This document shows, piece by piece, positions 261-47,794 of a stretch of DNA of 64,000 nucleotides (position 1 is its first letter; every line of letters begins with the position of its first letter). The DNA comes from Candidatus Latescibacterota bacterium. GTDB taxonomy: Bacteria > Latescibacterota > UBA2968 > UBA8231. The notes under the pieces are model-generated. The model did not search any database. It saw nothing but the letters and a program-made list of their open reading frames with translations, and was not told the DNA's origin. Where the stretch lies: contig OZ241889.1 in NCBI GenBank assembly GCA_965203355.1, positions 480,001-544,000 on the forward strand. Direction: 5' to 3'. The translations under genes and the position numbers were made by a program.

Positions 261-1570
261 CTAGAACATTTCCGCGATGTGGCGAAAGACCATCTGATTG
301 AGATCGTTGAACGTGACCAGCACCATGATCAACAGCATGATGGCCAAGCCGATCTGCTGAAAAATCGCGCGCTGGCGCAGCGAAAGCGGCCGGCGCATAA
401 TGGCCTCTAGCGCGAGGAAGGTCAGGTGGCCGCCGTCGAGCACGGGGATGGGCAGGAGGTTGATAATCGCCAAATTGACGCTGAGTATGGCGAGGAAATT
501 GACGAAGGCATGCAAGCCCTGCTCGGCAGTCTGGCCGGCTAGCTGGGCGATGCGCAACGGCCCCCCCAATTCGTCGGTCGAGCGGTCGCCTTGGAAAAGC
601 TCGCCCAAGAAGTCGAGGATCAGCCAAGAGGAATTGTACACGCCCAGCCCCCCCAACACCACCGCACGTCCCAACCCGACGATGTGGCGCGTCGCCTGCG
701 GGCCGATGCCAATGCGACCCACGGACGCGTCGCCCTCAGCGCGGGCCGCCGGGGTGATTAACTGCTCCATGCGCTGGCCATCGCGCTCCCAAACCAACGG
801 AATGGCCTCGCCCGGATAGCGGCGGATCTCCTCGCTCATTTCGGCCCAACTCACCACCGGCACTTGGCCGACGGAGAGAACGATGTCGCCCACTTGCAGG
901 CCGAGGCTGTCGGCTGGCATCCCGGGCTCAACGTACCCCACCGTGGTGGGGCGCATTAGCTGTACGCCGTAGCCCTCGTCTCCCACGGGCGGCAGGTCAA
1001 AGTCCAAGAGGATCCATCGCGCTCGATTTCGAGCCTAGTGCCGCTGCTTGCGCTCTCGTCTAAAGCGCTGGCCAATTCGTAGGCATTGCCGACGGGCGTA
1101 CCTCCGACGGTGCGCACGCGGTCGCCGCGCACCAGACCGACCTCGGCGGCCAGGGAATTCTCCTGGGGATTGACGCGCGTGCTATCGAAGGAGTCGATTC
1201 CATAAACGCTGAAGAGGAAGATCAGAGCCACGAAGGCGAAGAGGAAGTTCATCGCCGGACCAGCGGCAATGACCGCCATGCGAATTCCCACCGATCTAGC
1301 GGGAAATTCCCAATGCGCGCCGGTGGTTTCCTCCGTGCCCACGTCGGCCATGCCAGCCACCTTGACGTAACCGCCAAAGGGAATCCAAGAGATGCAGTAC
1401 TCGGTTTCGCCGCGAGTAAAGCCGATCATCTTGGGCGGGTAGCCCAACGAGAAGCGCTCGACGCGGATGCCCGCCCATTTGGCGACCATAAAGTGGCCCA
1501 ACTCGTGGACGAAAACCAAGACGCCTAAGGCGATGAGAAACGAGGCAATAGTAGTAAGGGTATCCAGCAT
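261..1570 (-). CDS. rseP: RIP metalloprotease RseP, split by a single-base frameshift near 1010 (ORFs 956..1570 and 261..1007)
   Basis: HELGH zinc motif, GGYVK and AGPAMN in the 5' ORF; second PDZ domain and NLLPIPVLDGGH in the 3' ORF; uppS-cdsA-rseP synteny. Confidence 0.9.
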
Positions 1571-1583
1571 ACTCTAATCCATC

Positions 1584-2420
1584 TCAAGAAAAAACGGCCA
1601 GCACATCCACGTAGAGATACGCCAGCGGAAAGGCTAAAAAGTAGGAATCAAAACGGTCGAGTAGGCCGCCGTGGCCTGGGATTAGCCTTGGCGCGTCCTT
1701 GATGCCCATGTCGCGCTTAAAGGCCGATTCCACCAAGTCGCCCACTTGCGCGCCCAGGCCCGCGACGAACAAAAGCCCCAGCAGCGACGCCGTAGAAAAG
1801 GAAGGCAGCAAAAAGCCCAAGGGCAGGGGCAGTGCGCTGCCGATTACGCCGCCGATGCTCCCGACCCTCGTCTTATTAGGGCTGATCGCCGGTGCTAGCT
1901 TGGCCCGGCCCCAAAACCGACCGCTGAAGTACGCCCCGGAATCTGTGAGCCAAATGCAGAGAAAGAGCACGGCTACCAAATGGTGAGCCTCCGCACCCCT
2001 ACCAGCCGCCTGAAAAAGCAGCAGCGGCGCACTGCCCAAGACGCCAAAGAAGAACACACCGCCCAACGTCAAAAAGACATTGGCCGCATAGTGCTCCGTG
2101 CCTTGGAACAAAGCCCACACCACAACCAGCAAGAGAGCCGCCATCAGCAACGCGGCGAGGTCGTCGCTCGCGCCCTGCCGCCAGAAGTAGAAGTAGCTGC
2201 ACAGCCCTAAGACCAACAAGCTGCCCAGCAGGCGGATGGTGCGGTAGCCCGCTTCGGCTAGGATGTGGTAATATTCCCACGAGCAGCGCACGGCCACCGC
2301 CAGTACCAAGAGGAAGATTCCCCAGCTAGCCCCTTCGACCAGCAGGAGGATCATCGGCACGAATACGACCGCCGCGAGGACGCGCAGCCGCAGACCAGAG
2401 AACGCTGGGTTAACTGCCAA
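1584..2420 (-). CDS. cdsA: Phosphatidate cytidylyltransferase
   Basis: DSGAYF, SPNKT, GDLVESAFKR...KD...PGHGGLLDRFDS signature; likely TTG start at 2420 overlapping the uppS stop. Confidence 0.92.
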   Translation of the reverse strand: MAVNPAFSGLRLRVLAAVVFVPMILLLVEGASWGIFLLVLAVAVRCSWEYYHILAEAGYRTIRLLGSLLVLGLCSYFYFWRQGASDDLAALLMAALLLVVVWALFQGTEHYAANVFLTLGGVFFFGVLGSAPLLLFQAAGRGAEAHHLVAVLFLCIWLTDSGAYFSGRFWGRAKLAPAISPNKTRVGSIGGVIGSALPLPLGFLLPSFSTASLLGLLFVAGLGAQVGDLVESAFKRDMGIKDAPRLIPGHGGLLDRFDSYFLAFPLAYLYVDVLAVFS

Positions 2421-3216
2421 AGCGCCTCTGTCGCTGTTGATAGGCGGCAATGGCTTCGTAGAGATGCTGGCGGCGAAAGTCCGGCCAATGTACGTCGCCG
2501 ACAAAGCAAATCTCGGTGTAGACCATCTGCCAAGGGAGGAAATTGCTCAGCCGCATTTCGCCGCTGGTGCGGATCAACAGGTCTGGGTCGGGCAAGTCGG
2601 CGGTATAAAGGGCCCCGCTGATTTGTTCCTCGCCGATGTCTGCTGGGGCGAGCCGACCCGCCGCTACTTCGGTAGCCAGCTTGCGGAAGGCATCGACCAA
2701 CTCGCTGCGGCCCCCGTAGTTGAGTGCCAAGTTGAGCTTGAGGCCGGTGTTGTCTTTGGTCTGCGCGAGGGCGTGGTCTAAGGCCAACTGTATGATCGGA
2801 GACAACGCGTCAGTGCGGCCGATGGCGTTGAGCGATACGTTGTTTTCGCGGAGTTCCGACACTTCGTCGCGCAGCGACTCGTGTAGCCACTGCATCAACT
2901 CTTCTACTTCCGCTTCGGGTCGGGACCAGTTCTCCGTTGAGAAGGTGTATAGAGTCAACGCCTCGACTTGCAGTTGGCTACAGGCGCGGACAATGTCGCG
3001 CACTGACTCGCGGCCAAAGCGATGGCCCTCGGTTTTGGGCAGCTTGCGCTCGACAGCCCAGCGCCTGTCGCCATCCATTATAATGGCGATGTGTTGCGGC
3101 AGGTTTCCTTCGTCCTTGAGGCGCTGCTGGATGCGGAAATCCTCTTCGGGATGGAGGGGTTTTACCGGGTGGTATTCGCGGGGAGAAATTTCCAGCGGCA
3201 GAGCCTGAGCACTCAT
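2410..3216 (-). CDS. uppS: Undecaprenyl diphosphate synthase (cis-prenyltransferase)
   Basis: PQHIAIIMDG, YTFSTENWSRP, NYGGR, PDLLIRTSGEMRLSNFL, C-terminal RRFG. Confidence 0.95.
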   Translation of the reverse strand: MSAQALPLEISPREYHPVKPLHPEEDFRIQQRLKDEGNLPQHIAIIMDGDRRWAVERKLPKTEGHRFGRESVRDIVRACSQLQVEALTLYTFSTENWSRPEAEVEELMQWLHESLRDEVSELRENNVSLNAIGRTDALSPIIQLALDHALAQTKDNTGLKLNLALNYGGRSELVDAFRKLATEVAAGRLAPADIGEEQISGALYTADLPDPDLLIRTSGEMRLSNFLPWQMVYTEICFVGDVHWPDFRRQHLYEAIAAYQQRQRRFGS

Positions 3217-3318
3217 AACGGATGATTGGGTGGGGTTTCTGTGGCGGCCATCCTCGGCCCTGTCATAGATTTGGGCGCGTTCTGCCTTAAAAAAACAAGG
3301 CCGCGCCCATCTTGGTTA

Positions 3319-3347
3319 ATCTTAGGGGAAAGGCTCATATTCGTCAA
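3319..3347 (-). promoter_or_regulatory. sigma70-type promoter for the uppS-cdsA-rseP-queG operon
   Basis: Minus strand reads TTGACG-17 bp-TAAGAT, about 100 bp upstream of the uppS ATG. Confidence 0.6.
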
Positions 3348-3353
3348 GCAATC

Positions 3354-3485
3354 GATAGTGGTACGTTTTGAAATTTAGCGTTACTCCCGTTGAACGGGTT
3401 GCTCTCGCTCGGCCTGAACCCCGGCGACCCAAGCCCGACCTCAACCGGACCGCGACAATTGGAGATTTCAAAACGCATCACGACC
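3354..3485. mobile_element. MITE-like element, copy 1 (complete, ~21-bp imperfect TIRs)
   Basis: Left end GATAGTGGTACGTTTTGAAAT vs reverse complement of right end GGTCGTGATGCGTTTTGAAAT (17/21); shares core CCGCGACAATTGGAGATT with copies at ~8491 and ~46628. Confidence 0.75.
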
Positions 3486-3544
3486 GAATGATTTGGTCTA
3501 ATCCCGCTTTGGCAGTGCAGGGTAGGTGCCGACATGGACAATAG

Positions 3545-3577
3545 AAATGGGACCTCAGAAAACTGAGGTCCCATTTT
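3545..3577. terminator. Intrinsic terminator downstream of the large surface-protein gene
   Basis: Perfect 14-bp stem AAATGGGACCTCAG-AAAA-CTGAGGTCCCATTT with A/T tails, about 25 bp past the stop codon. Confidence 0.8.
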
Positions 3578-3600
3578 CGTGATTCGCGGTGTCGCGTGTG

Positions 3601-6600
3601 CTACTTGAGCAGCAGCATCTTCTTGATGTCGAGGAAGTCACCGCCCGCCTGCAAGCGGTAGAAGTACATCCCCGACGATACGCTCTGGCCGCTATCGTTG
3701 GTCGCGTCCCACTCCACCGCATAACGACCGGCACTCTGATGCTCGGCAACCAGCGTCCGCACCGGCTGACCCAATACGTTATATACGGTCAGCCCCACGT
3801 CCGCCGCCTGCGGCAACGCATACTGAATCGTCGTCTGCGGATTGAACGGATTCGGATAGTTGGCCGCCAGCGAAAACACGGCCGGGCGCGTCTGCACCGA
3901 AACCGGCGCGGGCAATGCCAGCCGGTTGAAGCCCAACGCCTGGTCCCAGGTCCGGTTGTCGGTGATTTCGAGGGTCGTATGCTCGATCTCGGTCGTCGGC
4001 CGGAAGACTAAGCGCAGCATCAGTTCACCGTCCGAAACGACATCGCCGTGCGTGGCTACCGTCAACACGCCCGCTTCGGCCAGCACCTGCGGCGTAGCGA
4101 ATGCGCTCCCGCCCAGCGGCTGATCGGTCTGCGCCTCGACGAAGGTTAGCTGGTCGGCGTCATACGCTATCTGCAAGCCGTAGCCTTTGACCGCTACGAA
4201 GTCGGCCAGTCGCACATCGACGACGAACTCCTCTCCCACGCTCGGCAGGGCTGTCGGCGCATCCAGATACAGCCGCGCCGCCGCATTTAGCCCGGCCTGC
4301 AACGGCACCGGCTTGCCGGCCCCGCTGTTGAACCGATCGAACAACGCGCTCAAGTCGCCAAAGTCCAGCATCGCGTTGATGGTAATCGCGAACATCAGCG
4401 AGACGCTTTCTTCGCCAGCCATGGCCGTGTAGGTGACTTCAACGGCCCCATCAGTCGCCGCTTCCGGCGTCCCGGAGATCGTCCGGGTCGCCGGGTCAAA
4501 CGACAGCCCGGCCGGCAGCCCCGATACGCTATACGTGATGGTGCCTTCGCCGCCCAGCGCCATCGGCAGCACCAACGGCGTAATCGCCGTGCCCGCCGTA
4601 TAGTTCTGGTTGGGAATTGAAGCACCATCAACAAACGCCAAGGCGATCATCATATCCTCATCGCCGTCATTATCGTCCATCATGCCGCGGTCCATGTCGG
4701 TCAGCACCAGCGTCGCCGAACCCGCCATCAAGCCGGGCAGCATCGCGTTGAGGATGATCGTCTCGTCGCCTTCGGCCAGGCCGTCCGAGACTGGATCGAT
4801 CAACAGGCGCGTCGAACCCATAATCGAACCGGCGGCAATGGTAATGGTCGGATTGAACAGCGCCGAGTAGTCCGTGTCGCGGGTGGCACTGCTCGCAGCC
4901 GCATCAATCGAAACGGAGACCGTCGCGTTCTCGGCCAACGGCTTGCCGTCTAGCGCGGCCATGACCATTACTTCCGTCAATTCGGCTGACTCGCTGATCG
5001 CGCTCGGCGTCACCGACAGCACCAAAGACGTGCTGGGCGTTTCGTCGTCGGAAATGCGGATGTCCACCTGCGCCCAGCCGCCCGAAGCCGCCGCTCGCAC
5101 CCCCAAGTGCTTATGACCGGCCGCTGAAGCATTGTCAATCGGCGACAGGAAAAGCGTCGTCGAACCCATCGTCTCGCCAGCCGCAATCGTGATCGTCCCC
5201 GCTAATGTCGCGGTGTAATCCACGTCGCGGGTGGCCATCGCGCCGCTGGCCGGCGGCACAATCGTGAAACGGACCGTCTCAGCCGCCGGAGCCGCGCCCG
5301 ACAAGGTCGCCGTAACTCGGATTTCAGCCGTCTCGCCGTTTTCGCGCACGGCCGATTGCGAAGCCATCACGCTGGCGACGCCAATCGTAACCGGCGCGGC
5401 GTCAGCAACCGTGATGGTGAAAGTCCGCACCCCGCCATCGCCGTCGGCATCAATCGCCGTATAGACGACCGAGGCCATGCCCGCCAGCGTCGGTGTGCCC
5501 GAAAGCGTCCGGGTCGCCGCGTCAAACGACAGCCCCAGCGGCAGGTTCGACGAAACGCTGTACATCAGCGTTCCTTGGCCGCCCGTGGCCGCGGGCAACA
5601 CCGCGCTAAACGCTTGCCCCACCGTCGCTTCAAAGGCTAACGCGGCCGTGCCGAAACTCGGCCATCTCGTGTCCGCGGGCGTCTCGGAAGAATCATCCAT
5701 CATCGCCGCGTCTTTCAGCTTGATCGCCACGGGGCCGACCGTGATCTTGTCGTCGTCTTGGTTCTTGAGGTCGTCCTTGAGTGGCTTCAGTGTGATCGTC
5801 TCGTCGTTGTCGGCTTTGCCGTCGTTGACCGGCGTGATCGTGATCGTCGTCGAGCCGGTGATCTCGCCGCGTGGAATCGTCAGCGAGCGAAGCACCGCCG
5901 TATAATCCACATCCCGCGTCGCCGAACCGGACGCATCCTCATCCAAGACCAACGAGATCGTCGCATTCGCGTCGAGCACCTTGCCGTCTAACGTGCCCGT
6001 AACCGTGACCGTCGTCTCACCCGCGTCCTCTTTGATTTCGCTCGGATTGACCGACAGCGTGATGTTTTCGCTCAGCGTCTCATCGTCCGTGATCGTGAAC
6101 GTCTGCTCGTTCATCTGAGACTCTTCGGTTCCGACTTTCGCTGTCACCGTGAACGTCCGCGCATTATTCGCACCGCTGTTGTCCACCGGCGTGACCCGCA
6201 GCATGGCCGTGCCCTTGGTATCGCCGGTCGGGATCGTCAGCCCCTCAATGACCTCCACCTCATAATGCACATCGCGCGTCCCCTGACCCGCCGTAATCTG
6301 AAAGTCCACTGCCTTAGAGCCGGTTAAAGCCGTCTCCAACTCAACGGTCATCGTAACATCCGTCACCCCGGCGGCTTCGCGGATCGTCTTCGGACTCAGC
6401 GTAAAGTTCTTGAGCGTCGCAACCGCAACGTCCTCAACCGTGATGGTGCCGGGCTTGACCACAATAGGAATGACAAAAGAGTCCAAACGCTTGATAACTG
6501 TCCCATTGGGTATCTCTGTCCCATGGTTGCCACTTGTACTTGTACGGCCTGGAGTGATTCGCCCATCGCCGTTAAAGTCAATACGGAGCTCGAAAGCTTT

Positions 6601-7905
6601 CTGCGTTCGTTGGCTGGCTGTGAGAAGCGTGTCACCTACTCCATCAAGTAAGTATGGACCTGTTTCCGATAGCACTTTTCCGTCGGGCACCACATAGGTA
6701 TCCAACAGATCGTCATCCTTGAAAAAGTCGATCCCCAAGTCTTTTTCTACTAAAACGGTCCCCGCTGGGAGTTTGTCGGAGGCGGCATAGTTAAATGGCT
6801 CGCTATCCAAATTGACCCCAAAAAGCCCCGTGCTACTAGTAGGGCCTGTTCCAATATCCCCATCGCCGTTGAAGTCCACGCCGATGCCCATTAAACCGTT
6901 GCGATTAACGATTTCAGCAAACTGGACGTTGTCTTTTGTCGAATGCACATAATTATCTCCATTTATGGTCCCTTCCGTCCTTATGTCGAACCGGACCTGC
7001 TTACCCGCGCTATTGATCCGTTTCTTGACCTCCACCATTATCGTATCGGCATTGAGCTCGATCGTGCCCGACTTATTATCCGGATCGAGGGTGAACGTAG
7101 TCGTCGCGTCGATCTTCTTCTTCGGAATGGTCAGAGAACCCAACCCCCTAAGCGAGTAATCCACATCGCGCGTCAAGAAGCCACTGCCAGAAGAAACAAC
7201 CAACTGGGATTTAAGGTCTTGGGCCTTCAACGCGCCGCCCTCCAACATCGCCGTCACTTCAATCGGAGTCGCATCCGCCTGCTTGCTGAGCTTGGCCGGC
7301 GAAAAAGAGAGGTCGATATTGGGGACGAACACATCGTCGTCAATCAGATCAATATAGAAGACGCCAGTAACATTAGTAAGCTTCTCCTTATAGGACTTGG
7401 CGGTTTTGCCTTTCTCGAAGATGTCGCCAGTAGAACCCCCTACGTCAATCACGATAGGAAGATTAACCCGCATTTTAACCTTACCCGTATCGACCGCCGT
7501 ACCCGCCGTTATGGTCAGGGTATCAACATCCGCCGAAGCGTTGGCCTTGTTAATTCCGATCCGATTATTGTTGATCGGAGTTATGGTGATCGTCCCGGTC
7601 GCCTTGCGCTCGCCCTTCTTAATCACCAAAGAGGGTAACGATATTCTGAACAAATCGTTGAGATAGCGGGCCGTGATACCGACAAGACGCAGCGGAAGCT
7701 GAAGATCGGCCTTCGCCTTCGCGTCAGCGTCGCGTAATTCGGCTGTCACCATAATATCTTGCGCCCCTCCATCCTCGCGGACGGAACGCCGATCAACGGA
7801 TATGTCGATATTCTCGCTCTGAGCCACAGCCTCGCCGGCCCAGCCCAACACCAAACTGGCAACCAGCAAAAAAGGAAAGGTAAAAAGCCGCGTGTGCGTA
7901 CTCAT
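3601..7905 (-). CDS. Large secreted surface protein: signal peptide, ~6 Calx-beta-like repeats, 2 putative Ig (He_PIG) domains, cohesin-like domain, C-terminal FlgD-Ig/T9SS type A-like sorting domain
   Basis: Signal peptide ending AVA-Q; repeated ...ATRDVDY...LTIxxG...ITPVN modules; two LPxGLSFDxATRTxSGTP; C-terminus NYPNPFNPQTTIQY...WDATNDSGQSVSSGMYFYRL...KKMLLLK. Confidence 0.85.
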   Translation of the reverse strand: MSTHTRLFTFPFLLVASLVLGWAGEAVAQSENIDISVDRRSVREDGGAQDIMVTAELRDADAKAKADLQLPLRLVGITARYLNDLFRISLPSLVIKKGERKATGTITITPINNNRIGINKANASADVDTLTITAGTAVDTGKVKMRVNLPIVIDVGGSTGDIFEKGKTAKSYKEKLTNVTGVFYIDLIDDDVFVPNIDLSFSPAKLSKQADATPIEVTAMLEGGALKAQDLKSQLVVSSGSGFLTRDVDYSLRGLGSLTIPKKKIDATTTFTLDPDNKSGTIELNADTIMVEVKKRINSAGKQVRFDIRTEGTINGDNYVHSTKDNVQFAEIVNRNGLMGIGVDFNGDGDIGTGPTSSTGLFGVNLDSEPFNYAASDKLPAGTVLVEKDLGIDFFKDDDLLDTYVVPDGKVLSETGPYLLDGVGDTLLTASQRTQKAFELRIDFNGDGRITPGRTSTSGNHGTEIPNGTVIKRLDSFVIPIVVKPGTITVEDVAVATLKNFTLSPKTIREAAGVTDVTMTVELETALTGSKAVDFQITAGQGTRDVHYEVEVIEGLTIPTGDTKGTAMLRVTPVDNSGANNARTFTVTAKVGTEESQMNEQTFTITDDETLSENITLSVNPSEIKEDAGETTVTVTGTLDGKVLDANATISLVLDEDASGSATRDVDYTAVLRSLTIPRGEITGSTTITITPVNDGKADNDETITLKPLKDDLKNQDDDKITVGPVAIKLKDAAMMDDSSETPADTRWPSFGTAALAFEATVGQAFSAVLPAATGGQGTLMYSVSSNLPLGLSFDAATRTLSGTPTLAGMASVVYTAIDADGDGGVRTFTITVADAAPVTIGVASVMASQSAVRENGETAEIRVTATLSGAAPAAETVRFTIVPPASGAMATRDVDYTATLAGTITIAAGETMGSTTLFLSPIDNASAAGHKHLGVRAAASGGWAQVDIRISDDETPSTSLVLSVTPSAISESAELTEVMVMAALDGKPLAENATVSVSIDAAASSATRDTDYSALFNPTITIAAGSIMGSTRLLIDPVSDGLAEGDETIILNAMLPGLMAGSATLVLTDMDRGMMDDNDGDEDMMIALAFVDGASIPNQNYTAGTAITPLVLPMALGGEGTITYSVSGLPAGLSFDPATRTISGTPEAATDGAVEVTYTAMAGEESVSLMFAITINAMLDFGDLSALFDRFNSGAGKPVPLQAGLNAAARLYLDAPTALPSVGEEFVVDVRLADFVAVKGYGLQIAYDADQLTFVEAQTDQPLGGSAFATPQVLAEAGVLTVATHGDVVSDGELMLRLVFRPTTEIEHTTLEITDNRTWDQALGFNRLALPAPVSVQTRPAVFSLAANYPNPFNPQTTIQYALPQAADVGLTVYNVLGQPVRTLVAEHQSAGRYAVEWDATNDSGQSVSSGMYFYRLQAGGDFLDIKKMLLLK

Positions 7906-8101
7906 GATCTCACTCCTTTAGAAAAGGGAAAAGTGACAGAAGAAAATGGACTTAGCCTTATCACTAAGCCGCTGCGTTCTTGCGTTTTTGCTACCGTTGA
8001 GAAAGACGAATCCCTCGCGGCGAGCGCTCGGGCTACGACGTCGCCGACCGATAACCGCGAGGCTACCGAGGATGGGTTTCGTTTGTGATGTGGATGGGTG
8101 G

Positions 8102-8124
8102 CCACTGACCACTGACCACTGACC
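8102..8124. repeat. Heptamer tandem repeat (CCACTGA)x3 in the leader of the surface-protein gene
   Basis: ccactgaccactgaccactgacc seen directly. Confidence 0.8.
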
Positions 8125-8240
8125 GGTGGAGCTTACCGACGCGGCCGGACAGAATAATGCCGTTTCCCGCTTCCGTAGAGGAAGGGGAGCGAGGCAAATA
8201 GGTTGGTGAGTGAAGCTAGGGCTTAATGCCCAAGAAATTC

Positions 8241-8260
8241 GGGGAGGGGGGGGGGGGGGG
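8241..8260. repeat. Poly-G tract (G4-A-G15), adjacent to palindrome TAAGTC-N13-GACTTA
   Basis: ggggaggggggggggggggg followed by taagtcattgttttttaacgactta. Confidence 0.85.
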
Positions 8261-8457
8261 TAAGTCATTGTTTTTTAACGACTTATGGAGATTAAGTCTC
8301 GGCGTTATCGCAAACGTAGAACAAGGCACCGCTTCCGGCGATGGCGTTCTTTGTGCTATTGACGTTGTGCCCATGTCCTGTTAATCCGACTAAGAATGCC
8401 GCAAACGGCGGGGGTTTTATACCCAAACGCAACGCGCCGCTGTGAATTGCAACGTAT

Positions 8458-8487
8458 ATTTTACGAATTTCAGCAAAGGTTTGTCAA
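8458..8487 (-). promoter_or_regulatory. sigma70-type promoter of the large surface-protein gene
   Basis: Minus strand reads TTGACA-18 bp-TAAAAT, immediately inside MITE copy 2. Confidence 0.6.
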
Positions 8488-8490
8488 GCG

Positions 8491-8588
8491 GAAGTTTAGC
8501 TTTACTCCCGTTGGATCGCCCCGGCTCAACCCCAAACCCGACCGCAACCGGACCGCGACAATTGGAGATTGCAAAATGTACCACGACC
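8491..8588. mobile_element. MITE-like element, copy 2 (left TIR missing, internal deletions)
   Basis: gaagtttagctttactcccgttg...accggaccgcgacaattggagattgcaaaatgtaccacgacc aligns with copy 1; followed by AAGCAATC, the 8-mer that precedes copy 1. Confidence 0.72.
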
Positions 8589-8614
8589 AAGCAATCCCTA
8601 GGTGCCACACGCGC

Positions 8615-8643
8615 TTGACGCCCTTTTTGGGTGCCGATATTAT
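8615..8643 (+). promoter_or_regulatory. sigma70-type promoter for the cyclo-ligase/NIPSNAP/dusB operon
   Basis: TTGACG-17 bp-TATTAT, ending 7 nt before the ATG at 8651. Confidence 0.7.
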
Positions 8644-8650
8644 GGTACTC

Positions 8651-9244
8651 ATGAAGGAGGCGACGCGCACTTGCAAAGAACGGCTCAGAAAGCGCGTCCT
8701 AGCTGTGCGCCTGGGCTTGGCCCGCAGCCAAGCGGAAGCTAGCTGGCAGGCCATATTAGAGAAGGTCTTGGGCTTGGAGGCGTACCGCGAGGCCAAACTC
8801 GTCCACACCTATGTCTCTAGCAAGGAAAACGAAGTCGATACGCACGCCTTGATCCGCGCTTGCTTTGCACACGGCAAGCGCGTGGCCGTGCCCGTAGTGA
8901 TGCCAGGCACGAAGACGCTGGGCCACGCGCTGATCGACGGCCTAGACCAACTCGTCGTCGGCCCCTCGGGGCTAGCGCAACCCGATCCGGCGGCGGCCAC
9001 TTGGCTGCCCGCAGCAGCTCACTTCGACTTGGTCGTGGTGCCGGGCCTCGCCTTTGACCGGCGCGGGCAGCGCATCGGCTGGGGCGGCGGCTACTACGAC
9101 CGCTTTCTCGCGCAAGTGCAGGCCGTCAAAATAGGGCTGTGCTACGACGCGCTAGTCCTCGACTGCATTCCCGGCGAGCCACACGATGTGCCCGTGGACC
9201 TGGTCGTCGCCGAAACCGCCATTTACCAAGGAGACCTTGCATGA
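8651..9244 (+). CDS. ygfA: 5-formyltetrahydrofolate cyclo-ligase
   Basis: KxxLRK N-terminus, ENEVDT, GKRVAVP, DLVVVPGLAFDRRGQRIGWGGGYYDRFL, EPHDVPVD. Confidence 0.92.
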   Translation: MKEATRTCKERLRKRVLAVRLGLARSQAEASWQAILEKVLGLEAYREAKLVHTYVSSKENEVDTHALIRACFAHGKRVAVPVVMPGTKTLGHALIDGLDQLVVGPSGLAQPDPAAATWLPAAAHFDLVVVPGLAFDRRGQRIGWGGGYYDRFLAQVQAVKIGLCYDALVLDCIPGEPHDVPVDLVVAETAIYQGDLA

Positions 9245-9555
9245 TCTACGAACTGCGCATCTATCGCTTCCACAAGGGAGCCGACGACAAAAAGAAATTC
9301 CGCGCCGGCTTTGCCAAGGCCCGCCGCTTTATGGCCAAGTACGGCGTGACGTTTGTCGCGGCATGGGAAAATCCCGACCGCGACGACGAGTTCATCTGGA
9401 TTCGCGCCTTCCCCAACGCCAAGGCCCGCGACAAGGCGATTGAAGCCTATTACGGCAGCCCAGAATGGGCCAAGATCGTCGATCAAATCCGGCCGCTAAT
9501 CCGCCGGCGGGAAGTGCGAGTAATGAAAGCATTGCCCTATTCGACCCTGAAGTAA
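9241..9555 (+). CDS. NIPSNAP family protein
   Basis: MIYELRIYRF...FIWIRAF...YYGSPEW; ATGA overlap with the upstream gene. Confidence 0.85.
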   Translation: MIYELRIYRFHKGADDKKKFRAGFAKARRFMAKYGVTFVAAWENPDRDDEFIWIRAFPNAKARDKAIEAYYGSPEWAKIVDQIRPLIRRREVRVMKALPYSTLK

Positions 9556-9559
9556 AATA

Positions 9560-10540
9560 ATGCTCCGCATCGGCCCAATAACCGCTGACCCCGGCATCCT
9601 GCTAGCGCCCATGGAGGATGTTTCCGAGCTACCGTTCCGCCTGATTTGCCGGGAACTGGGAGCCGACATCGTCTATACCGAGTTCGTCAATGCCGAGGGG
9701 CTGTTGCGCGAAGATCCCAACGGGCCGCGCCGCGCTTTTCGCAAGCTGCGCTTTGCCGAGGCCGAGCGACCTTTGGCCATCCAACTCTACGGCGCGGCCT
9801 CGCTGTCTATGGAGAAAGCCACCGAAATCGCCAGCGCACAAAACCCAGACTTCATCGACATCAACTGCGGCTGCTGGGTGAGCAATGTAGCACTGCGCGG
9901 AGCCGGGGCCGGGCTGTTGCGCGACTTGCCGCAGATGAAGGAGGTCGTCTCGCGCGTCATCGGCGCAACCCACCTGCCGGTGACCGTGAAGACGCGCCTC
10001 GGCTGGGACCAGCAGAGCATTCGCATCGTCGCGGTTGCTCAGATGCTCGAGGCACTGGGCGTACAGGCACTGGCCATTCACTGCCGCACCCGCGCACAAG
10101 GCCACAAGGGCGCAGCAGATTACGAGTGGATTCCCAAGGTCAAGGCGGCGGTCTCCATACCGATCATTCTCAACGGCGACGTCACCTCGCCGCAAATAGT
10201 CAAACACGCCTTCGACAGCACCGGGTGCGACGGGGTGATGATCGGCCGCGCGGCCATCCGCCACCCGTGGATTTTCCGCGAATCCCAGCACTACCTCCAG
10301 ACGGGTGCGCTCCTGCCCGAACCGAGTTGGCCGGAGCGCGTTGAGCTGTGCCTCAAGCACCTGCGACTGGCCGTTGAACACGACGGCCCGCAGGGGGCCC
10401 TGATCGGCATGAGACGCCACTACGCCGGGTACTTTCGCGGTCTGCGCGGCGCGGCGCGGCTCAGAGCCGAACTGGCGGGCTACAAGGAACTAAGCCCCTT
10501 GTTGGACCGCCTCGCGGAACTGCAACGCCTCGCCGCCTGA
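9560..10540 (+). CDS. dusB: tRNA dihydrouridine synthase
   Basis: LLAPMEDVS, DINCGC, PVTVKTRLGWD, HCRTRAQ, NGDV, GVMIGRAA..HPWIF. Confidence 0.9.
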   Translation: MLRIGPITADPGILLAPMEDVSELPFRLICRELGADIVYTEFVNAEGLLREDPNGPRRAFRKLRFAEAERPLAIQLYGAASLSMEKATEIASAQNPDFIDINCGCWVSNVALRGAGAGLLRDLPQMKEVVSRVIGATHLPVTVKTRLGWDQQSIRIVAVAQMLEALGVQALAIHCRTRAQGHKGAADYEWIPKVKAAVSIPIILNGDVTSPQIVKHAFDSTGCDGVMIGRAAIRHPWIFRESQHYLQTGALLPEPSWPERVELCLKHLRLAVEHDGPQGALIGMRRHYAGYFRGLRGAARLRAELAGYKELSPLLDRLAELQRLAA

Positions 10541-21173: not shown

Positions 21174-21917
21174 CTAATCCACATCCACATCGAGGATATA
21201 GCGCGCCGCTGGCGGGATGCGCTTCCAAGTCTCGTAGCGCAGGTACTCGCGCTGGTTGAGCTGCTGGCCGTGCTCGCGGGCGGTAAAGTAGCAGTGCATG
21301 GCGCGGCGGGGCAGGTCCTTGCTCTGGTTGCGGGTGCCGCCGTGCCACGTGTGGCTGTTGAAGACGGCAACCGCGCCAGCCGGGGCAATGAGCCGCTCTT
21401 CGTCGGCCAAAACATGGCGCGGGTGCTGGCCTTTATGCGAGCCGGGCACCAGCCGAGTGCAGCCGTTTTCCTCGCTGAAGTTGTCCAGCAGCCAGATCGA
21501 GTTGCAGACGTGAAACTGGCCGTCGCAATCTGCTCCCCAGTCGGCGTGCAACCCCTGTAATCCCGCGCCGGGCAAGGCGTCGCGGGCATTGAGCGAGGAG
21601 AGCTTGAAGGAGCGGCCGATGACGTGGTGGACGGCGGCCAGCACTTTGGGGTGAGTATATACGCGGTCGAACACCGCCCCTTTGTTGCAGAGGTCGGCGA
21701 GGCGGCGCGTACCCGGCTCCTGATGGACTTCAATACCGGCGTGGACCCCTTCTTTTTCGCACAGTTCCTCAAAGCGGGTGCGCAGTGCCGCGAGCCACTC
21801 GTCGTCGATGATATCCAGAAGCACGGTGTACCCCTTGTCGTCGAGGTCGCTTCTGTTTTGCTCAGTCAGTACGCCTCGGTGGGCACCCAAGGCGTCCAAT
21901 GCGCGTACGATATCCAT
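21174..21917 (-). CDS. Phytanoyl-CoA dioxygenase (PhyH) family protein
   Basis: LHADW (HxD), WLLDNFSEENGCTRLVPGSH, TWHGG...R. Confidence 0.88.
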   Translation of the reverse strand: MDIVRALDALGAHRGVLTEQNRSDLDDKGYTVLLDIIDDEWLAALRTRFEELCEKEGVHAGIEVHQEPGTRRLADLCNKGAVFDRVYTHPKVLAAVHHVIGRSFKLSSLNARDALPGAGLQGLHADWGADCDGQFHVCNSIWLLDNFSEENGCTRLVPGSHKGQHPRHVLADEERLIAPAGAVAVFNSHTWHGGTRNQSKDLPRRAMHCYFTAREHGQQLNQREYLRYETWKRIPPAARYILDVDVD

Positions 21918-21921
21918 TCTT

Positions 21922-22755
21922 CTATTGCTCCGCTTCCGTTTCAACGAGCGCCTTGAGCGGCACGTCTTCGTCCCGGGGCAAGTAGTAGCTCAAGGGATCG
22001 CCGACGACGCCGATGAGCTGTCTTTGGATCGGATTGCAGCGGGCGACGAGTTCGTCGGGCATGGCGATATAATCCATGGGTTTGACCCAGCGGTAACCGT
22101 AGCCAAAGAACGCGGTTTTGCGCGGGAAGCCTGCCCAGTTGTGGCCGATGGAGTGATAGGTGCGCTGCTCAAACAGGAAGGCCGAGCCAGCGCGGATATT
22201 CATCGCCTGTGCGCCGTATGGCAGACCAGTCTTGGGGTCCGTGGCCGGGCGTCCGAGCAGGCGGTTGGAACCGGGCGCGATCCAAGTCGCCCCCGAAGCC
22301 GGAGCGGTCTGGTCGCTGAGGGCATAGGCGATCTTTAGCAAAATGCGCGGGTGTGGCTCGCTCATCTCGCGGGACGAGGTGCCGCCATCGCGGTGCCAGC
22401 CGAGCTTGTTTTTTTCGCCGGCAGCCGGCTCGTCGCCCGAGGGCAGGACGATCAAGTGCGAGGTCAGCATTTGGATATTCCAGCCGAGAAGCTGCCACGC
22501 CAGCGGAACCGTGGCGGGCCAGTCGAGGAGCTGGAGGAAAGCGGGGTGCTCAACGATGCAGTTGCGCATGTTGAGCTTGCCGCCCTTTTCTAGCCGACCA
22601 GCGTCGGCATCGCGTGCATAGAGCGCATCCGCGGCCGCGTTGAGCTCAGCGAGTGTATCGGGAGGCAGGACATCTTCGACGAGGAGATAGCCTTGCTGTT
22701 CAAAGAATGCTTGGTTTTCCGGGGTGAGGACCGCTTGGGCCAGAGGTAGAGTCAT
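21922..22755 (-). CDS. Phytanoyl-CoA dioxygenase (PhyH) family protein
   Basis: FFEQQGYL, WHRDG, GATWIAPGSN, YHSIGHN...RK. Confidence 0.87.
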   Translation of the reverse strand: MTLPLAQAVLTPENQAFFEQQGYLLVEDVLPPDTLAELNAAADALYARDADAGRLEKGGKLNMRNCIVEHPAFLQLLDWPATVPLAWQLLGWNIQMLTSHLIVLPSGDEPAAGEKNKLGWHRDGGTSSREMSEPHPRILLKIAYALSDQTAPASGATWIAPGSNRLLGRPATDPKTGLPYGAQAMNIRAGSAFLFEQRTYHSIGHNWAGFPRKTAFFGYGYRWVKPMDYIAMPDELVARCNPIQRQLIGVVGDPLSYYLPRDEDVPLKALVETEAEQ

Positions 22756-22820
22756 AGGTACAAAATTAAAGGGCATTTTTCGTTTGACAACAGTTCAGAC
22801 AAGCAACCCCAAAACGAACC

Positions 22821-25546: not shown

Positions 25547-26428
25547 ATGGAAAAATTTGCCCCCTTGAACATGTCCCCAGCAGAGCTAATCGAGTACACG
25601 CCCGAGTGGGCGGGCGAGCGCTTTGCCGACGGCCGCCCCAAGGTCCCCGACGACATCCTCGAGCGCACGCGCAACGTCAGCATTACTCAAGCCTGGGGCG
25701 TCATGCGCGGCCCCGGCTACAACTGGCAGTACGAAGACGGCTGGATTTGTACGCACCCGGGCCAAGTGCTGGTGGGCCGCGCCCTGACAGCTATGTACAT
25801 GCCACGGCGGCCCGTCATGCGGCGGGTCATGGAAGAAAAAGGGGAACGAGCCGGCTGCATTGGCGACCAAATCTCGTGGCCCATTGATAGGCTGGTGCCC
25901 GGAGACGTGTACGTAGCCGACGTATTCGGCAAAATCGACCAAGGCGCGGTCATTGGCGACAATCTCGCCACGGCCATCTACGCCAATTCGGGCAACGGAG
26001 TGGTTCACGACGCGGCGGTCCGCGACATCGACGGCATCCAGGAACTACCCAACTTCACCAGTTTCGTGCGCGGCTTTCACCCCACCTTTGCCTCGCCCAC
26101 CATCATGCTGGCCGGGGTCAACTGTCCAATACGCATCGGCAGGGCCACGGTCATGCCCGGCGACGTAGTCCTCGGCCGCGATGATGGCGTCGTCTTCATA
26201 CCGCCTCATCTAGCCGAACAAGTGGTCAAGACCTCCGAGCTGATCGCGCTCCGCGACCGCTTTGGCAAGCAGCGTCTGGCCGAGGGCAAATACACGCCGG
26301 GCCAAATCGATACCCGTTGGTCTGATCCAATTGAAGAGGACTTCTCGCGCTGGTTGGAAAGTCACATCGACGAACTGCCCGTGCCGCGTGCCGCCATTCA
26401 AGAACTGCTCAAGGAGCGGACTTGGTAG
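25547..26428 (+). CDS. RraA-like / 4-hydroxy-4-methyl-2-oxoglutarate aldolase family protein
   Basis: GRALTA, IGDNLA, DAAVRD, TVMPGDVVLG..DGVVFIP. Confidence 0.82.
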   Translation: MEKFAPLNMSPAELIEYTPEWAGERFADGRPKVPDDILERTRNVSITQAWGVMRGPGYNWQYEDGWICTHPGQVLVGRALTAMYMPRRPVMRRVMEEKGERAGCIGDQISWPIDRLVPGDVYVADVFGKIDQGAVIGDNLATAIYANSGNGVVHDAAVRDIDGIQELPNFTSFVRGFHPTFASPTIMLAGVNCPIRIGRATVMPGDVVLGRDDGVVFIPPHLAEQVVKTSELIALRDRFGKQRLAEGKYTPGQIDTRWSDPIEEDFSRWLESHIDELPVPRAAIQELLKERTW

Positions 26429-27191
26429 GCTCGGGCGGCGGCTGGCCGACGACCAGTTTACCACCCTTGAGAAAAGGCTCGGCATTGCCCCAGAGTTTGC
26501 TGCCGTCGGCCGAGATCAGGGGCTCGCAGGAATACTGGGCCAAGTACACGCGGCGCATCTGCTCGGTGGCATTGGTGCCGCTGGAGTGAAAATTGACGCT
26601 GGTGAAAACGGCAATGCTGCCAGCCGGAGCGACGACCGAGACGCCGGGGTCGCGGCCGAAATAGCCGACCAAATCGTTGCTCCCTTCCTCGCGGACGTGC
26701 TTGACCCAAGTGCGAATGCCCGAGCGCGAAAAGGGCAGCAAGTGGACGGTGCCATTGGCCTCGGACATGTCGTCGAGGGCGCACCAACAGGTTAGATACG
26801 GCTTGTGATCCGGGTAGCCGACGTAGCCCGAGTCTTGGTGCCAAGAGAACTTCATGCCAGTCTCGGCACCTTTGACTACGTATTGCTCCCAGAACAAGTA
26901 GGCGTCGTCGCCCAAGGTGGCTTGGCATATTGCGGCCATTAGGGGGCTGAAGAGGAACTCGCGCAGGCGCGGCTGATCGCGGAAGCAATTGGCGACAAAG
27001 TAGCGGCTGTTGCGATGATTGAGACCCAGCGTATCCGTGCCCTCGGCGTCCATCCGGGCGTTGGCCTTGTCGATGAAGGCTTGGCACTCGCCGCGCAGGA
27101 GATCGAGGTGGTGGGCGGGGATCGCGTTTTCGAGGATGAAATAGCCCTCTTCTTTGAATTGCTGCTTTTGGGCGTCGGTGATCTGGTACAT
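26409..27191 (-). CDS. Phytanoyl-CoA dioxygenase (PhyH) family protein
   Basis: QFKEEGY, WHQDSGY, WCALDD, FHSSGTN...RR. Confidence 0.9.
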   Translation of the reverse strand: MYQITDAQKQQFKEEGYFILENAIPAHHLDLLRGECQAFIDKANARMDAEGTDTLGLNHRNSRYFVANCFRDQPRLREFLFSPLMAAICQATLGDDAYLFWEQYVVKGAETGMKFSWHQDSGYVGYPDHKPYLTCWCALDDMSEANGTVHLLPFSRSGIRTWVKHVREEGSNDLVGYFGRDPGVSVVAPAGSIAVFTSVNFHSSGTNATEQMRRVYLAQYSCEPLISADGSKLWGNAEPFLKGGKLVVGQPPPEPTKSAP

Positions 27192-27306
27192 GAATCGCTC
27201 CATCAATTGAAATTTAATGTGTAAATTGAGGCGATATACTGATATGTGCAAGCCTTGCACGCGAACAAAAAAATATAAAACTTGAAGAAACGTGGGTGCA
27301 TATAAA

Positions 27307-27930
27307 ATGGAAACCCCAGCAATACTCCAAGCACTAGAACTGACCTCTTGGTGGGAGGTGCCAGCGGTCGTCTTGGCCATTCTCTACTTAGTCCTGGCGG
27401 CACGGGAAAATATCTGGTGTTGGGCGGCGGCTTTCGCCAGCACCGCGATGTACATCTACGTCTTCTTCGATGTCAAGCTGTTCTTAGAATCGGCCCTACA
27501 GATTTACTACCTGGGCATGGCGGTTTATGGCTGGTACCAATGGCAGCATCCCTCCAATCAATCTGCAACGCTGCCCATTTCTACTTGGTCGCTCAAAAAG
27601 CACAGCGTGGTTATTGCTGCGACGGGTGCTATTGTGGTGCTGTCCGGGTATCTTTTGCGCGAAAATACAACGGCGGCCTTGCCGTATGTCGATGCCTTCA
27701 CCACTTGGTATGCGGTGGTAACGACCTATATGGTGGCAAAGAAGATTTTGGAGAATTGGGCGTACTGGTTTGTCATCGACAGCGTGTCGGTGTATCTCTA
27801 CTATAGCCGAGGGCTCTATCTGACCGCTCTGTTGTTTATCGCCTATTTGGTTATTATTGTCTTTGGCTATTTAAGATGGAAAAGAGAGTACGATCAGCAA
27901 CCCGGCCCGCAAAGGAGTTCCATGTTGTAA
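27307..27930 (+). CDS. pnuC: PnuC-family nicotinamide riboside/vitamin transporter
   Basis: RENIWCW, LQIYY..MAVYGWYQW, PYVDAFTT, KILENWAYWFVID. Confidence 0.9.
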   Translation: METPAILQALELTSWWEVPAVVLAILYLVLAARENIWCWAAAFASTAMYIYVFFDVKLFLESALQIYYLGMAVYGWYQWQHPSNQSATLPISTWSLKKHSVVIAATGAIVVLSGYLLRENTTAALPYVDAFTTWYAVVTTYMVAKKILENWAYWFVIDSVSVYLYYSRGLYLTALLFIAYLVIIVFGYLRWKREYDQQPGPQRSSML

Positions 27931-30255: not shown

Positions 30256-31766
30256 GGAAGGTCTTTCGCGGTCGGAGTATGGAGCAGGTCGGCCGGAGCC
30301 GCGCCGCCAGCAAAGCGGCTCGACACCCGACCGCGGTCGAGGACGATGGAGCGGTCGCAGACGCCAGCGACTTCTTCGGCGTCCGAGGAAACCAAGAGTA
30401 CGGCAAGCCCTTGTTGAGTCCACTGCCGCAGTGCCAAGTAGAGCGCACGGCGAGCCCCCACATCCACGCCGCGGGTCGGTTCTTCGAGGATGAGCACCGC
30501 GAGATCTTCGACCAACCAGCGGGCCAAGCATGCCTTTTGCTGATTGCCGCCCGAGAGCAAGCGCAGCGGTTGGTCGAGGTGGGCAGCGCGAATCCCCAAG
30601 CGGTCGATCCAGCTTTGCGCGTGGCTTGTTTCGCGCGGCTTGGACACGGAAAACAAGCGCACGAAGCGGTCGATAAAGGGCAAGGTGATATTGGCCCGGA
30701 CGCCGAGGTCCGGGACGATGCCCTCGCGCTGGCGTTCGGCCGCGACAAAACCGATACCCGCGTCGCGGCCCCGGCGCGGGTCGGTCGGGACATAGGGCGC
30801 GCCTCCAAGTGCAATGCGTGTGCCAGATAGCGGACCCAGCGCACCATAGACGGCCCGGCCAAGCTGGTCAATCCCCGAGCCGAGTAGGCCGAAGACGCCG
30901 AGAATCTCACCTTGGCGGAGCGAGAAGGACACGCGGTCGAGCACACCGGGCAGGCTCAGATTTTCAACCTCCAGCGCGACTGCGCCAGTGCTCGCGCCGC
31001 GCGGAGGGTAGAGTTCATCAACAGTTGTGCCGAGCATGGCGTCGAGCACCTCGCGCCGCGAAGCAGTGGTCGCGAAGTTGCCAGCGTTCAGCCCATCGCG
31101 GAGTACGGTGATGCGGTCGGCGATCTCGAAGACCTCGTCGAGGTAATGGGAGATATAGACGATGCCGATCTGCTGCGCCTTGAGCCGCTCGACGACGGCG
31201 AAGAGTGCCCTTACCTCGCGGTCGGCGAGGGAGGCGGTTGGCTCGTCCATGACGATGACCCGCGCTTGGCCTGCGAGGGCACGGGCGATTTCCACTAGGC
31301 GCTTGTGTGGCGCGGAGAGTTGGTGTACTGGCGCATCGGGATCGAGGTCGCAGCCGAGCCGATCGAGCAGTGCCCGCGCTCTTGCACGCAGTTCCGGGCG
31401 ATCTACTTCCCGGCCAAACCACGAGCGTTTGCGCGGCAGGTCGGCGATGAGGATGTTTTCGGCGACTGTGAGGTCGGGCAAAACCGACACTTCCTGCGGT
31501 AAAAAGCGGACGCCGTGAGCGATGGCTTCTTCGGGCCGATCGCAGTGTACTGCTTGGTCGCCGAGGCGGATGGAGCCAGCGTCGCGGCTGTACACGCCGC
31601 AGAGAATTTTCACTAGCGTGGACTTACCCGCTCCGTTGGCACCCAGCAGCGCTAAGACCTCTCCAGCGTCTAAGCCGAGCTCGACCTCGCGCAACACTTG
31701 GGCACTGCCGAAGGATTTGCAGATGCCTGCCATCTGCAACAGAGGCGCGGTATGGACCATGCTCAT
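30252..31766 (-). CDS. Sugar ABC transporter ATP-binding protein (RbsA-like)
   Basis: GANGAGKST, MDEPT, ISHYLDEVFE, LSGGNQQK, EEPTRGVDVG. Confidence 0.93.
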   Translation of the reverse strand: MSMVHTAPLLQMAGICKSFGSAQVLREVELGLDAGEVLALLGANGAGKSTLVKILCGVYSRDAGSIRLGDQAVHCDRPEEAIAHGVRFLPQEVSVLPDLTVAENILIADLPRKRSWFGREVDRPELRARARALLDRLGCDLDPDAPVHQLSAPHKRLVEIARALAGQARVIVMDEPTASLADREVRALFAVVERLKAQQIGIVYISHYLDEVFEIADRITVLRDGLNAGNFATTASRREVLDAMLGTTVDELYPPRGASTGAVALEVENLSLPGVLDRVSFSLRQGEILGVFGLLGSGIDQLGRAVYGALGPLSGTRIALGGAPYVPTDPRRGRDAGIGFVAAERQREGIVPDLGVRANITLPFIDRFVRLFSVSKPRETSHAQSWIDRLGIRAAHLDQPLRLLSGGNQQKACLARWLVEDLAVLILEEPTRGVDVGARRALYLALRQWTQQGLAVLLVSSDAEEVAGVCDRSIVLDRGRVSSRFAGGAAPADLLHTPTAKDLP

Positions 31767-31767
31767 G

Positions 31768-32940: not shown

Positions 32941-33107
32941 AGCTACACTTTCGTTTGGAAATGGACTGACGAATATACGGAGCGGACAGCCGGTGGCTCA
33001 AGGCGGCGATTGCTTTTCAGGAGCGATGCGGTTGGCTACTATTGGGTACCGCACGCTAGTAACCGATCCAAGGAAAGGAAATCTTTCTGCTATGGCTGCT
33101 ATTTGGG

Positions 33108-33338
33108 ATGGTCAGCGCCGTGGTCGCCACGAACAAAGGACGAAGCGGTTGTGGTTGGTTTGCACTTGGCGTGTTGCTCGGTCCCTTTGGTTTCATTTTG
33201 GCTTTGGTTGTTCCCAAAAATCAGGAAGAAGTTGAAAAAAAATCTATTCAAATCGGCGACATGAAAAAGTGTCCATACTGTGCTGAACTCGTAAAAGCGG
33301 AAGCGGTCAAGTGTCGCTACTGTGGGGAAGAGATTTAA
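33108..33338 (+). CDS. Small membrane protein with C-terminal zinc ribbon (possibly lost its original start at 33075)
   Basis: A.NKGRSG.GWF.LG.LLGP and KKCPYCAE...KCRYCGE; in-frame upstream EIFLLWLLFG preceded by AAG instead of ATG. Confidence 0.75.
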   Translation: MVSAVVATNKGRSGCGWFALGVLLGPFGFILALVVPKNQEEVEKKSIQIGDMKKCPYCAELVKAEAVKCRYCGEEI

Positions 33339-33391
33339 TTAGGAAAGGCTCCACGCTGAGATAGCGATCCATAACTAAAAAGGAAAACGCA

Positions 33392-43730: not shown

Positions 43731-43742
43731 CGTTTCCCCCCC

Positions 43743-46547: not shown

Positions 46548-46627
46548 AAGGGAGCTCCTTCACAAAGGCTGTTAAAATAAACCCGCACAGTTTGCTTCGG
46601 CAAATGACCGCTGCTAGCGAATAAGAT

Positions 46628-46747
46628 CGCAGTGGTACAAGCTTTACTCTCGTTAAACGGGTCGTCCCGCTCCGCCTGAACCCCGGCACCTCAAGCCCGA
46701 CCTCAACCGTGCCGCGACAATTGGAGATTGCAAAGTGTACCATTACC
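46628..46747. mobile_element. MITE-like element, copy 3, with target-site duplication AATAAGAT(CG)
   Basis: Aligns with copy 1; ends CGCAGTGGTACA / TGTACCATTACC; direct repeat aataagatcg at 46620-46629 and 46748-46757. Confidence 0.78.
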
Positions 46748-46811
46748 AATAAGATCGTACATGTATTGGGGTGTTTTATAGTACCCTTGAAGGGTACACT
46801 GACGGAAAATT

Positions 46812-47639: not shown

Positions 47640-47794
47640 TTACTTGTGACGTCTCGCCTATTGGTGAACTTGGCGTTCTGGGTTGTATTGGTCGTCCAAT
47701 CTCGGCGGCTTGTCGCTGTACGGCATTTTCCACATATCACTGAGTAGTTTATGAAAAACCTTCCAACGCGCAAGGAGTCCAACAAAAGCGAATA

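Follow-up and report, generated by a model that had tools for sequence, protein, structure and literature searches.

A candidate nonautonomous composite transposon, bounded by miniature inverted-repeat elements, around a giant surface-protein gene of a Latescibacterota bacterium

How does a gene for a 1434-residue secreted surface protein come to lie between two divergent promoters, with a copy of the same short, gene-less repeat on either side of it? The question is raised by a 64,000-nucleotide stretch of contig OZ241889.1 from a Candidatus Latescibacterota bacterium (assembly GCA_965203355.1, positions 480,001 to 544,000), hereafter the window, in which an initial annotation made from the letters of the sequence had read some 5.2 kb as a mobile cassette bracketed by two MITEs (miniature transposable elements with inverted repeats). 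That interpretation is supported by the analysis presented here, which places the two repeats, the gene between them and the duplicated target around them side by side with an empty version of the same site in a close relative, and which asks by what route the block may have arrived.

Repeat copies, target duplication and the empty site

The left boundary of the cassette is formed by MITE copy 1 (3354..3485, plus strand), a complete 132-bp element with both terminal inverted repeats whose left end is also the cassette’s outer left end, and the right boundary by copy 2 (8491..8588, plus strand), which at 98 bp is without its inner (left) inverted repeat and whose right end is the outer right end. 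The two copies of this ~120-130-bp element stand in direct orientation and share local matches of 90% over 58 nt (3428-3485 vs. 8531-8588) and 91% over 23 nt (3370-3392 vs. 8491-8513); identity over the gapped alignment, which has 18 gap columns, is 84.7% (83 of 98 aligned positions). Between the inverted ends of copy 1, 17 of 21 positions pair by manual count (3354-3374 vs. 3465-3485), and the same ends pair in the predicted fold (z -2.5), while copy 2 retains its outer inverted end only and has no end-to-end fold. Alignment and fold thus bear out the earlier description of one complete and one truncated copy flanking a single transcription unit.

Beyond these two, the window holds a third copy (46629-46747, plus strand), which is 119 bp long, has lost some internal sequence close to the left end, has shorter inverted-repeat arms and sits between unrelated genes. 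The end motif of the family occurs four times in the window, against 0.30 expected, at the left and right ends of copy 1 and at the right ends of copies 2 and 3; both outer ends of the cassette therefore bear it, unlike the inner end of copy 2. A 23-mer taken from the repeat has three matches in the 64 kb, where 100 shuffles lead one to expect none, and no Rfam family matches the repeat copies. All three are noncoding and well within the size bound of bacterial MITEs (132, 98 and 119 bp; <500 bp), and the family further displays terminal inverted repeats, a target duplication around a solo copy and many copies at unrelated sites, as MITEs do.

The 8-mer AAGCAATC lies directly outside both outer ends of the cassette (3346-3353 and 8589-8596), where the initial annotation had placed it, but its length may have been underestimated: with the preceding C included, the shared repeat is the 9-bp CAAGCAATC on the left (3345..3353) as on the right (8588..8596), and it shrinks to the 8 bp of AAGCAATC if that C is assigned to the element end on the other side. 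The bases past the inner end of copy 1, GAATGATT, are unlike the duplicated target, and copy 1 taken alone has no duplication (CAAGCAATC on one side vs. GAATGATTT on the other). Copy 3 is enclosed by a perfect 9-bp duplication of its own, AATAAGATC (46620-46628 and 46748-46756; 9, or possibly 10, bp), together with which it spans 46620..46756. The repeat family, then, transposes with duplication of this length, and since copy 3 has its own 9-bp repeat, the 8-mer at the cassette is target sequence and not part of the repeat consensus, a distinction on which the earlier reading had been made to depend. Contigs from two public sequencing runs, X5 and X6, agree: four in each match the window from exactly 3354 rightwards and diverge to the left of that position, with unlike left flanks.

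The population evidence consists of the assembled contigs of public runs, among the matches listed, with X1 and X2 labelled as sponge metagenome. In X1, which comes from a different study than the runs with the filled form, a 35,836-nt contig has window positions 3344 and 8588 next to each other and CAAGCAATC only once; its positions 30874-32713 correspond to window 1500-3344 and 32714-34626 to window 8588-10500, without interruption. The flanks differ from the window at 38 of 1845 and 49 of 1913 letters (about 97.5% identical), and the join reads ...ttcgt followed by caagcaatccctagg..., with one copy of the 9-mer. The empty site that had been predicted for a relative, ...cgtcAAGCAATCcctagg..., is exactly what this contig carries, and what the relative lacks is the gene and both repeats together, so that it does not hold the gene here without its MITEs. 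The filled junctions (1500-3423, and from 8559/8561 onwards) recur without a single difference in X3, X5 and X6; these runs represent two studies, and one of the runs may be the window’s own source, so that they do not count as independent evidence. Where contigs agree fully with the window, they break off within the repeats (at 3423 and 8559-8561), as an assembly does at a repeat present in many copies. The whole block, with both repeats included, is one insertion/absence polymorphism with target duplication between populations about 97.5% alike, and the duplication, found at the outer ends only and single at the empty site, belongs to the whole cassette rather than to copy 1, as had been proposed.

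The block was inserted between two divergent promoters and disrupted neither. On its left, uppS (undecaprenyl diphosphate synthase by Pfam; 2410..3216, minus strand) retains an intact promoter-like site at 3347-3319, with its -35 box TTGACG at 3347-3342; on its right, the gene for 5-formyltetrahydrofolate cyclo-ligase (by Pfam; 8642..9244, plus strand) retains one at 8615-8643, with its TTGACG box at 8615. Our promoter scan confirms that removal of the cassette leaves the two divergent promoters intact with their TTGACG boxes 24 nt apart. The UppS protein has matches of up to 93-94% identity, and its nearest named relatives, from Latescibacterota metagenome-assembled genomes (MAGs), stand at 76% or less.

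Probable one-step transposition and its rivals

To the reading of 3354-8587/8588 (~5.23 kb) as a nonautonomous composite transposon, brought to this site by one-step transposition of a MITE pair, we give an even chance of being correct, which makes it the likeliest of the histories considered. Under such a history, two diverged MITE copies in direct orientation would enclose a self-contained unit of promoter, ~550-nt leader, type IX secretion system (T9SS) surface-protein gene and terminator hairpin; a transposase encoded in trans, by an element with GGnnnTG-type ends and 8-9-bp duplications, would recognize copy 1 at its left end and copy 2 at its right; and all that lies between these outer ends would be carried together into the region of divergent promoters between uppS and the cyclo-ligase gene, duplicating (C)AAGCAATC and leaving both resident promoters intact. 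Copy 2 being without its inner end, its remaining end could pair only with the far end of copy 1, which would tie the cargo to the pair. Since the reaction would use the outer ends in a single step, the duplication would belong to the whole cassette. We infer the single insertion event, the mobilization in trans and the kind of transposase; what is observed are the marks of a MITE-bounded composite element, namely the paired copies, a duplication confined to the outer ends and, in the relative, an empty site with one target copy. That MITE pairs can move the DNA between them has a precedent in the TIME-COMPs, as described in the available text of PMC4133298 and PMC13367494. The age of the pair can also be judged against that of the insertion: the copies are 84.7% alike, vs. 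a difference of only ~2-2.6% between the flanks of filled and empty alleles, and being so much more diverged than the alleles, they did not arise by replication during the insertion, provided that the insertion postdates the split of the strains.

The ends themselves are ~21 bp long and of GGnnnTG type. All three right ends fit this pattern (GGTCGTG twice, GGTAATG once), and the duplications measure 8 or 9 bp at the cassette and 9 bp at copy 3. Elements of the IS1 family make 8-9-bp duplications, a range within which both of these lengths fall. GGnnnTG ends are, according to the available text of PMC6807381, common to the IS1 and IS6/IS26 families, the latter with an 8-bp duplication. The motif being common to both, IS1, the family of the earlier assignment, and IS6/IS26 are both candidates; we assume that a cognate transposase acting on these ends is supplied from elsewhere. 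Searches for further relatives of the repeat gave little: among genome contigs a 22-nt MITE pattern found one stretch, in an Anaerolineaceae MAG, where a search with the whole MITE returned a best match of 22 nt at the level of chance (E 0.01); among metagenome contigs a MITE pattern found one stretch, within an apparent coding sequence and with no MITE likeness beyond the pattern, so that the two stretches, of 21-22 nt, are chance matches; among viral contigs the outcome was 0 stretches; and blastn against a plasmid collection returned one 38-nt match, in an unrelated Halomarina gene.

Several observations weigh against one-step transposition. No transposase or recombinase family was matched by any of the 52 distinct open reading frames (ORFs) scanned in the window, in agreement with the initial annotation, ORFs of <180 aa being included within the examined gaps only; nor does the window contain a full-length element with matching ends, the motif being matched there by the four known ends and no others. 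The left ends, GATAGTG and GCAGTG, are poorer than the right ones, and neither of the two fits GGnnnTG. The same cassette was not seen at a second site, the closest paralog of its gene standing at ~84-86% protein identity, and the joints listed include no circle or excised junction from 8588 to 3354. Finally, a two-step history yields an identical final structure. The joints 8488 to 3413 (X3, X5), 8513 to 3407 (X1) and 3385 to 8513 (X3) were considered as circle junctions and set aside, other copies of the family fitting them better.

The two-step history just mentioned, in our judgment possible but rather unlikely, would have a solo MITE insert with its target duplication, after which a circle with the gene and a truncated MITE would integrate into the resident copy, either through homologous recombination of the Campbell type or through a conservative end reaction as in the translocatable units of IS6/IS26. 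Such integration requires copies in direct orientation, which is how they are found, and the intact right ends of copies 1 and 2 would suffice for a conservative end-to-end reaction, while the family of the cargo, apparently at least 15 paralogs in the genome with long near-identical stretches among them (100% to the paralog P0124 over aa 841-1080), would provide abundant substrates for recombination. Published systems lend it further weight: the definition of pseudo-compound transposons in the available text of PMC13055272 rests on copies that face the same way and on an intermediate in circular form; GGnnnTG ends suit IS6/IS26 as well as IS1 (PMC6807381, as far as its text was available); and the authors who described a MITE-flanked integron left the choice between transposition and recombination undecided in the accessible part of PMC3934969. 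Its cost is that two events are needed since the split from a ~2-2.6% diverged relative that is without any element at the site, and neither a solo-MITE allele nor a circle junction appears among the joints listed.

The observed arrangement, with a direct copy at either junction and a single duplication enclosing everything, would also be produced by a replicative copy-in cointegrate, a known behavior of IS26-type elements, in which a circle with one MITE and the gene fuses with the chromosome and the MITE is duplicated at insertion. The circular unit of IS26-type elements is itself described in the available text of PMC13055272. Copies made in this way would start out identical, whereas the actual pair has 84.7% identity in an alignment with 18 gap columns, and an end is missing from one of the two, and the filled and empty alleles are only ~2-2.6% apart; an old insertion, with the empty allele produced by later precise loss, would be the exception, and we regard this route as highly improbable. 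To an ancestral gene around which two MITEs landed independently, with an 8-mer shared by chance, we attach practically no credence. It is true that AAGCAATC is not rare, with five matches in the window vs. 2.04 expected, but simple arithmetic puts the chance of identical 8 nt at two fixed positions at ~1.5e-5, copy 1 is without a duplication of its own, and the relative in X1, where the 9-mer occurs a single time at the join, has neither the gene nor either repeat, which excludes two independent landings around a resident gene.

The cargo unit and its paralogs

The transcription unit carried by the cassette runs on the minus strand from one MITE toward the other. It opens with a promoter-like site, TTGACA-18-TAAAAT (8458..8487; 11 of 12 consensus positions), only 3 nt from copy 2; that this copy retains a degenerate inner end which supplies the promoter’s -35 box was considered and rejected, only 6 of 14 positions matching the copy 1 end, which is not above chance. 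A ~550-nt untranslated leader (7906..8457) and the 1434-aa gene (3601..7905) follow, so that promoter scan and ORF listing agree with the unit as first described. The terminator given earlier at 3545-3577 fares less evenly: a hairpin with a perfect, 100% complementary 14-bp stem does stand at 3545..3576 (minus strand), 24 nt downstream of the stop codon, and is likely the terminator of the cargo gene, but a consensus terminator scan made no call there. The predicted protein combines two He_PIG Ig-like domains, Calx-beta-like repeats and a C-terminal T9SS type A sorting domain, the last matched by TIGR04183 over aa 1350-1422 (34.1 bits vs. a cut-off of 23); PF13860 is also matched (42.5 bits vs. 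27), and PF18962 reaches 26.3 bits vs. a cut-off of 27. By its sorting domain the cargo is predicted to be a type IX-secreted protein.

The leader has several features of its own, namely a C15TC4 tract at 8241-8260, the 7-nt repeat CCACTGA in 3.3 tandem copies at 8102-8124 and, directly upstream of the ribosome-binding site, a hairpin with an 8-bp stem and T-run at 7970-7949. It has no Rfam match, and the ORFs inside it have no Pfam match; its function may be that of a conserved regulatory leader or of an attenuator. Variation in the length of the G/C tract in run X6 was considered as phase variation at this locus and discounted, as it may stem from paralogous leaders.

The cargo belongs to a large family within what appears in the protein listings as a single contig of 4,171,184 nt, 14 further proteins being listed with a contig of that size, which makes at least 15 paralogs in all. 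These 14 (P0122-P0132, P0134, P0135 and P0137) fall into two size classes of ~1410-1500 and ~1865-1945 aa and are 39-74% identical to the cargo within the first 520 residues and 60-86% identical over their length. Against five paralogs of its own size class, residues ~120-480 of the cargo are variable (18-78%) and residues 480-1434 conserved (66-100%), the P0124 stretch quoted above being the extreme. A variable N-terminal module joined to a near-identical C-terminal part suggests recombination among the paralogs, in a mosaic typical of recombining surface-protein families. Contig depth fits this picture: in X3 the leader (7821-8422) stands at ~10-27 times single-copy depth, about equal to the MITE, and in the runs as a whole many times the single-copy level is reached by the leader and by the gene’s C-terminal two-thirds but not by 6316-7218, although summed contig depth also counts other organisms and is a hint only. 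The leader thus seems to be common to the paralogs, and one 5,238-nt contig matches it at 8249-8424 with 89% identity, after which its match resumes at 8552, in the MITE end.

We would further entertain, as a speculation that we consider unlikely, that MITE-bounded cassettes are the vehicle by which, in this symbiont lineage, the giant T9SS surface-protein family multiplied and relocated to at least 15 paralogs within one 4.17-Mb genome. Each paralog would then be a ready-to-express unit of promoter, conserved ~550-nt leader, gene and terminator between two MITEs, and the dispersed paralogs would recombine through their conserved C-terminal two-thirds while the N-terminal module (aa ~120-480) diversifies. 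The depth of the leader in X3 and the 5,238-nt contig are no more than hints of such a history.

Elsewhere in the window, 41385-45794 (minus strand) encodes a second, shorter protein ending in an FlgD_ig-type C-terminal tail (43743-45794, 683 aa) and, next to it, one of 781 aa in which F5/8 type C is weakly matched; these genes have no adjacent MITE except copy 3, ~800 nt away. On its other side, copy 3 is bordered by a stretch that by eye is AT-richer (46757-47700), which may be a small foreign insert and which contains a 275-aa ORF (46812-47639, minus strand) without a Pfam or NCBIfam family. At the left of the window, beyond uppS, an RseP-type M50 protease gene (261-1570, minus strand) lies split over two ORFs that overlap and are read in different frames; 956-1570 has M50 profile positions 2-106 and a PDZ domain, and 261-1007 has a PDZ domain and M50 positions 107-220, a pattern that indicates a frameshift, whether genuine or introduced by the assembly. 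A tandem array of a 54-bp unit (4.3 copies, 92% matches; 55702-55931) stands in the spacer that separates hrpA from a xylose-isomerase-like TIM-barrel gene, four genes of the PhyH family (phytanoyl-CoA dioxygenase-like) occur within the 64 kb (21174-22776, 26409-27380, 45807-46547), and two enolase-superfamily genes as well as genes of sugar or inositol metabolism are also present.

Known systems and significance

The cassette can be set against several better-known arrangements. In Tn9, or IS1-cat-IS1, direct GGnnnTG-ended repeats likewise surround one gene, with a 9-bp duplication, and they are full, transposase-encoding copies of IS1, whereas the cassette is bounded by gene-less miniature copies. 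Tn9 is named as a composite transposon in the available text of PMC13055272. In the TIME-COMPs, as in the cassette, two miniature elements without a transposase, in direct or inverted orientation, bound a passenger, with an outer duplication and a transposase acting in trans (PMC4133298 and PMC13367494, in the text available). The TIMEs, however, have 38-bp Tn3-type ends and 5-6-bp duplications in the accessible text of PMC4133298, vs. the ~21-bp GGnnnTG-type ends and 8-9-bp duplication found here, which sets the cassette outside both TIMEs and TIME-COMPs. As these sources present them, TIME-COMPs are mostly plasmid-borne and carry resistance or replication modules, and their movement was shown by experiment, whereas the cassette, with a surface-protein gene as its passenger, lies in the chromosome of an uncultured, sponge-associated bacterium, and the pair of empty and filled sites is its evidence of movement.

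Class 1 integrons of Acinetobacter, flanked by 439-bp MITEs, come close in having the same MITE at both ends and direct target repeats at the outer ends only, in the available text of PMC3934969 and PMC10969869, where a unit of this build is inferred; they have a 5-bp duplication, identical copies and a resistance-gene integron as passenger, whereas the cassette has copies only 85% alike, a truncation in one of them and a single gene as passenger. The pseudo-compound transposons of IS6/IS26 share directly oriented copies with the cassette and, with GGnnnTG ends and a duplication of ~8 bp (PMC13055272 and PMC6807381, as far as their text was available), come near to its GGnnnTG-type right ends and its duplication of 8 or 9 bp, but are bounded by full, transposase-encoding insertion sequences (ISs) whose copies are, in those accounts, usually identical, and not by differing, noncoding relics of ~100-130 bp. 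Its bounding copies, direct but noncoding and 98-132 bp long, set the cassette apart from them.

Mobile insertion cassettes (MICs), of which MIC231 is an example, have two ends only, while the cassette has one complete MITE side that is potentially mobile alone. Another MIC, the qnrS2 cassette of Aeromonas plasmids, is described in the available text of PMC5444012 as a passenger between IS-type inverted ends, with no transposase. With the inner end of copy 2 lost, the cassette stands halfway between a MITE pair and a MIC. MITE-bounded mobile cassettes are, then, an already known kind, of which this one has GGnnnTG-type ends, a chromosomal location in a little-studied phylum and a surface-protein cargo.

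What the locus adds is a clean natural and nonclinical case in which a gene-less miniature pair carries a complete, expressible chromosomal gene, with filled and empty alleles both found in the wild and with an insertion that, falling between two divergent promoters, did no damage. In the available text of the documented counterparts (PMC10969869, PMC3934969, PMC4133298, PMC13367494 and PMC5444012), nearly all concern resistance genes on plasmids of Proteobacteria. The cargo in this case is a host-facing surface protein whose family is expanded and mosaic; the bacterium is uncultured, sponge-associated and Latescibacterota-like, and the mobility of such a cargo could help explain how the surfaces of such symbionts vary.

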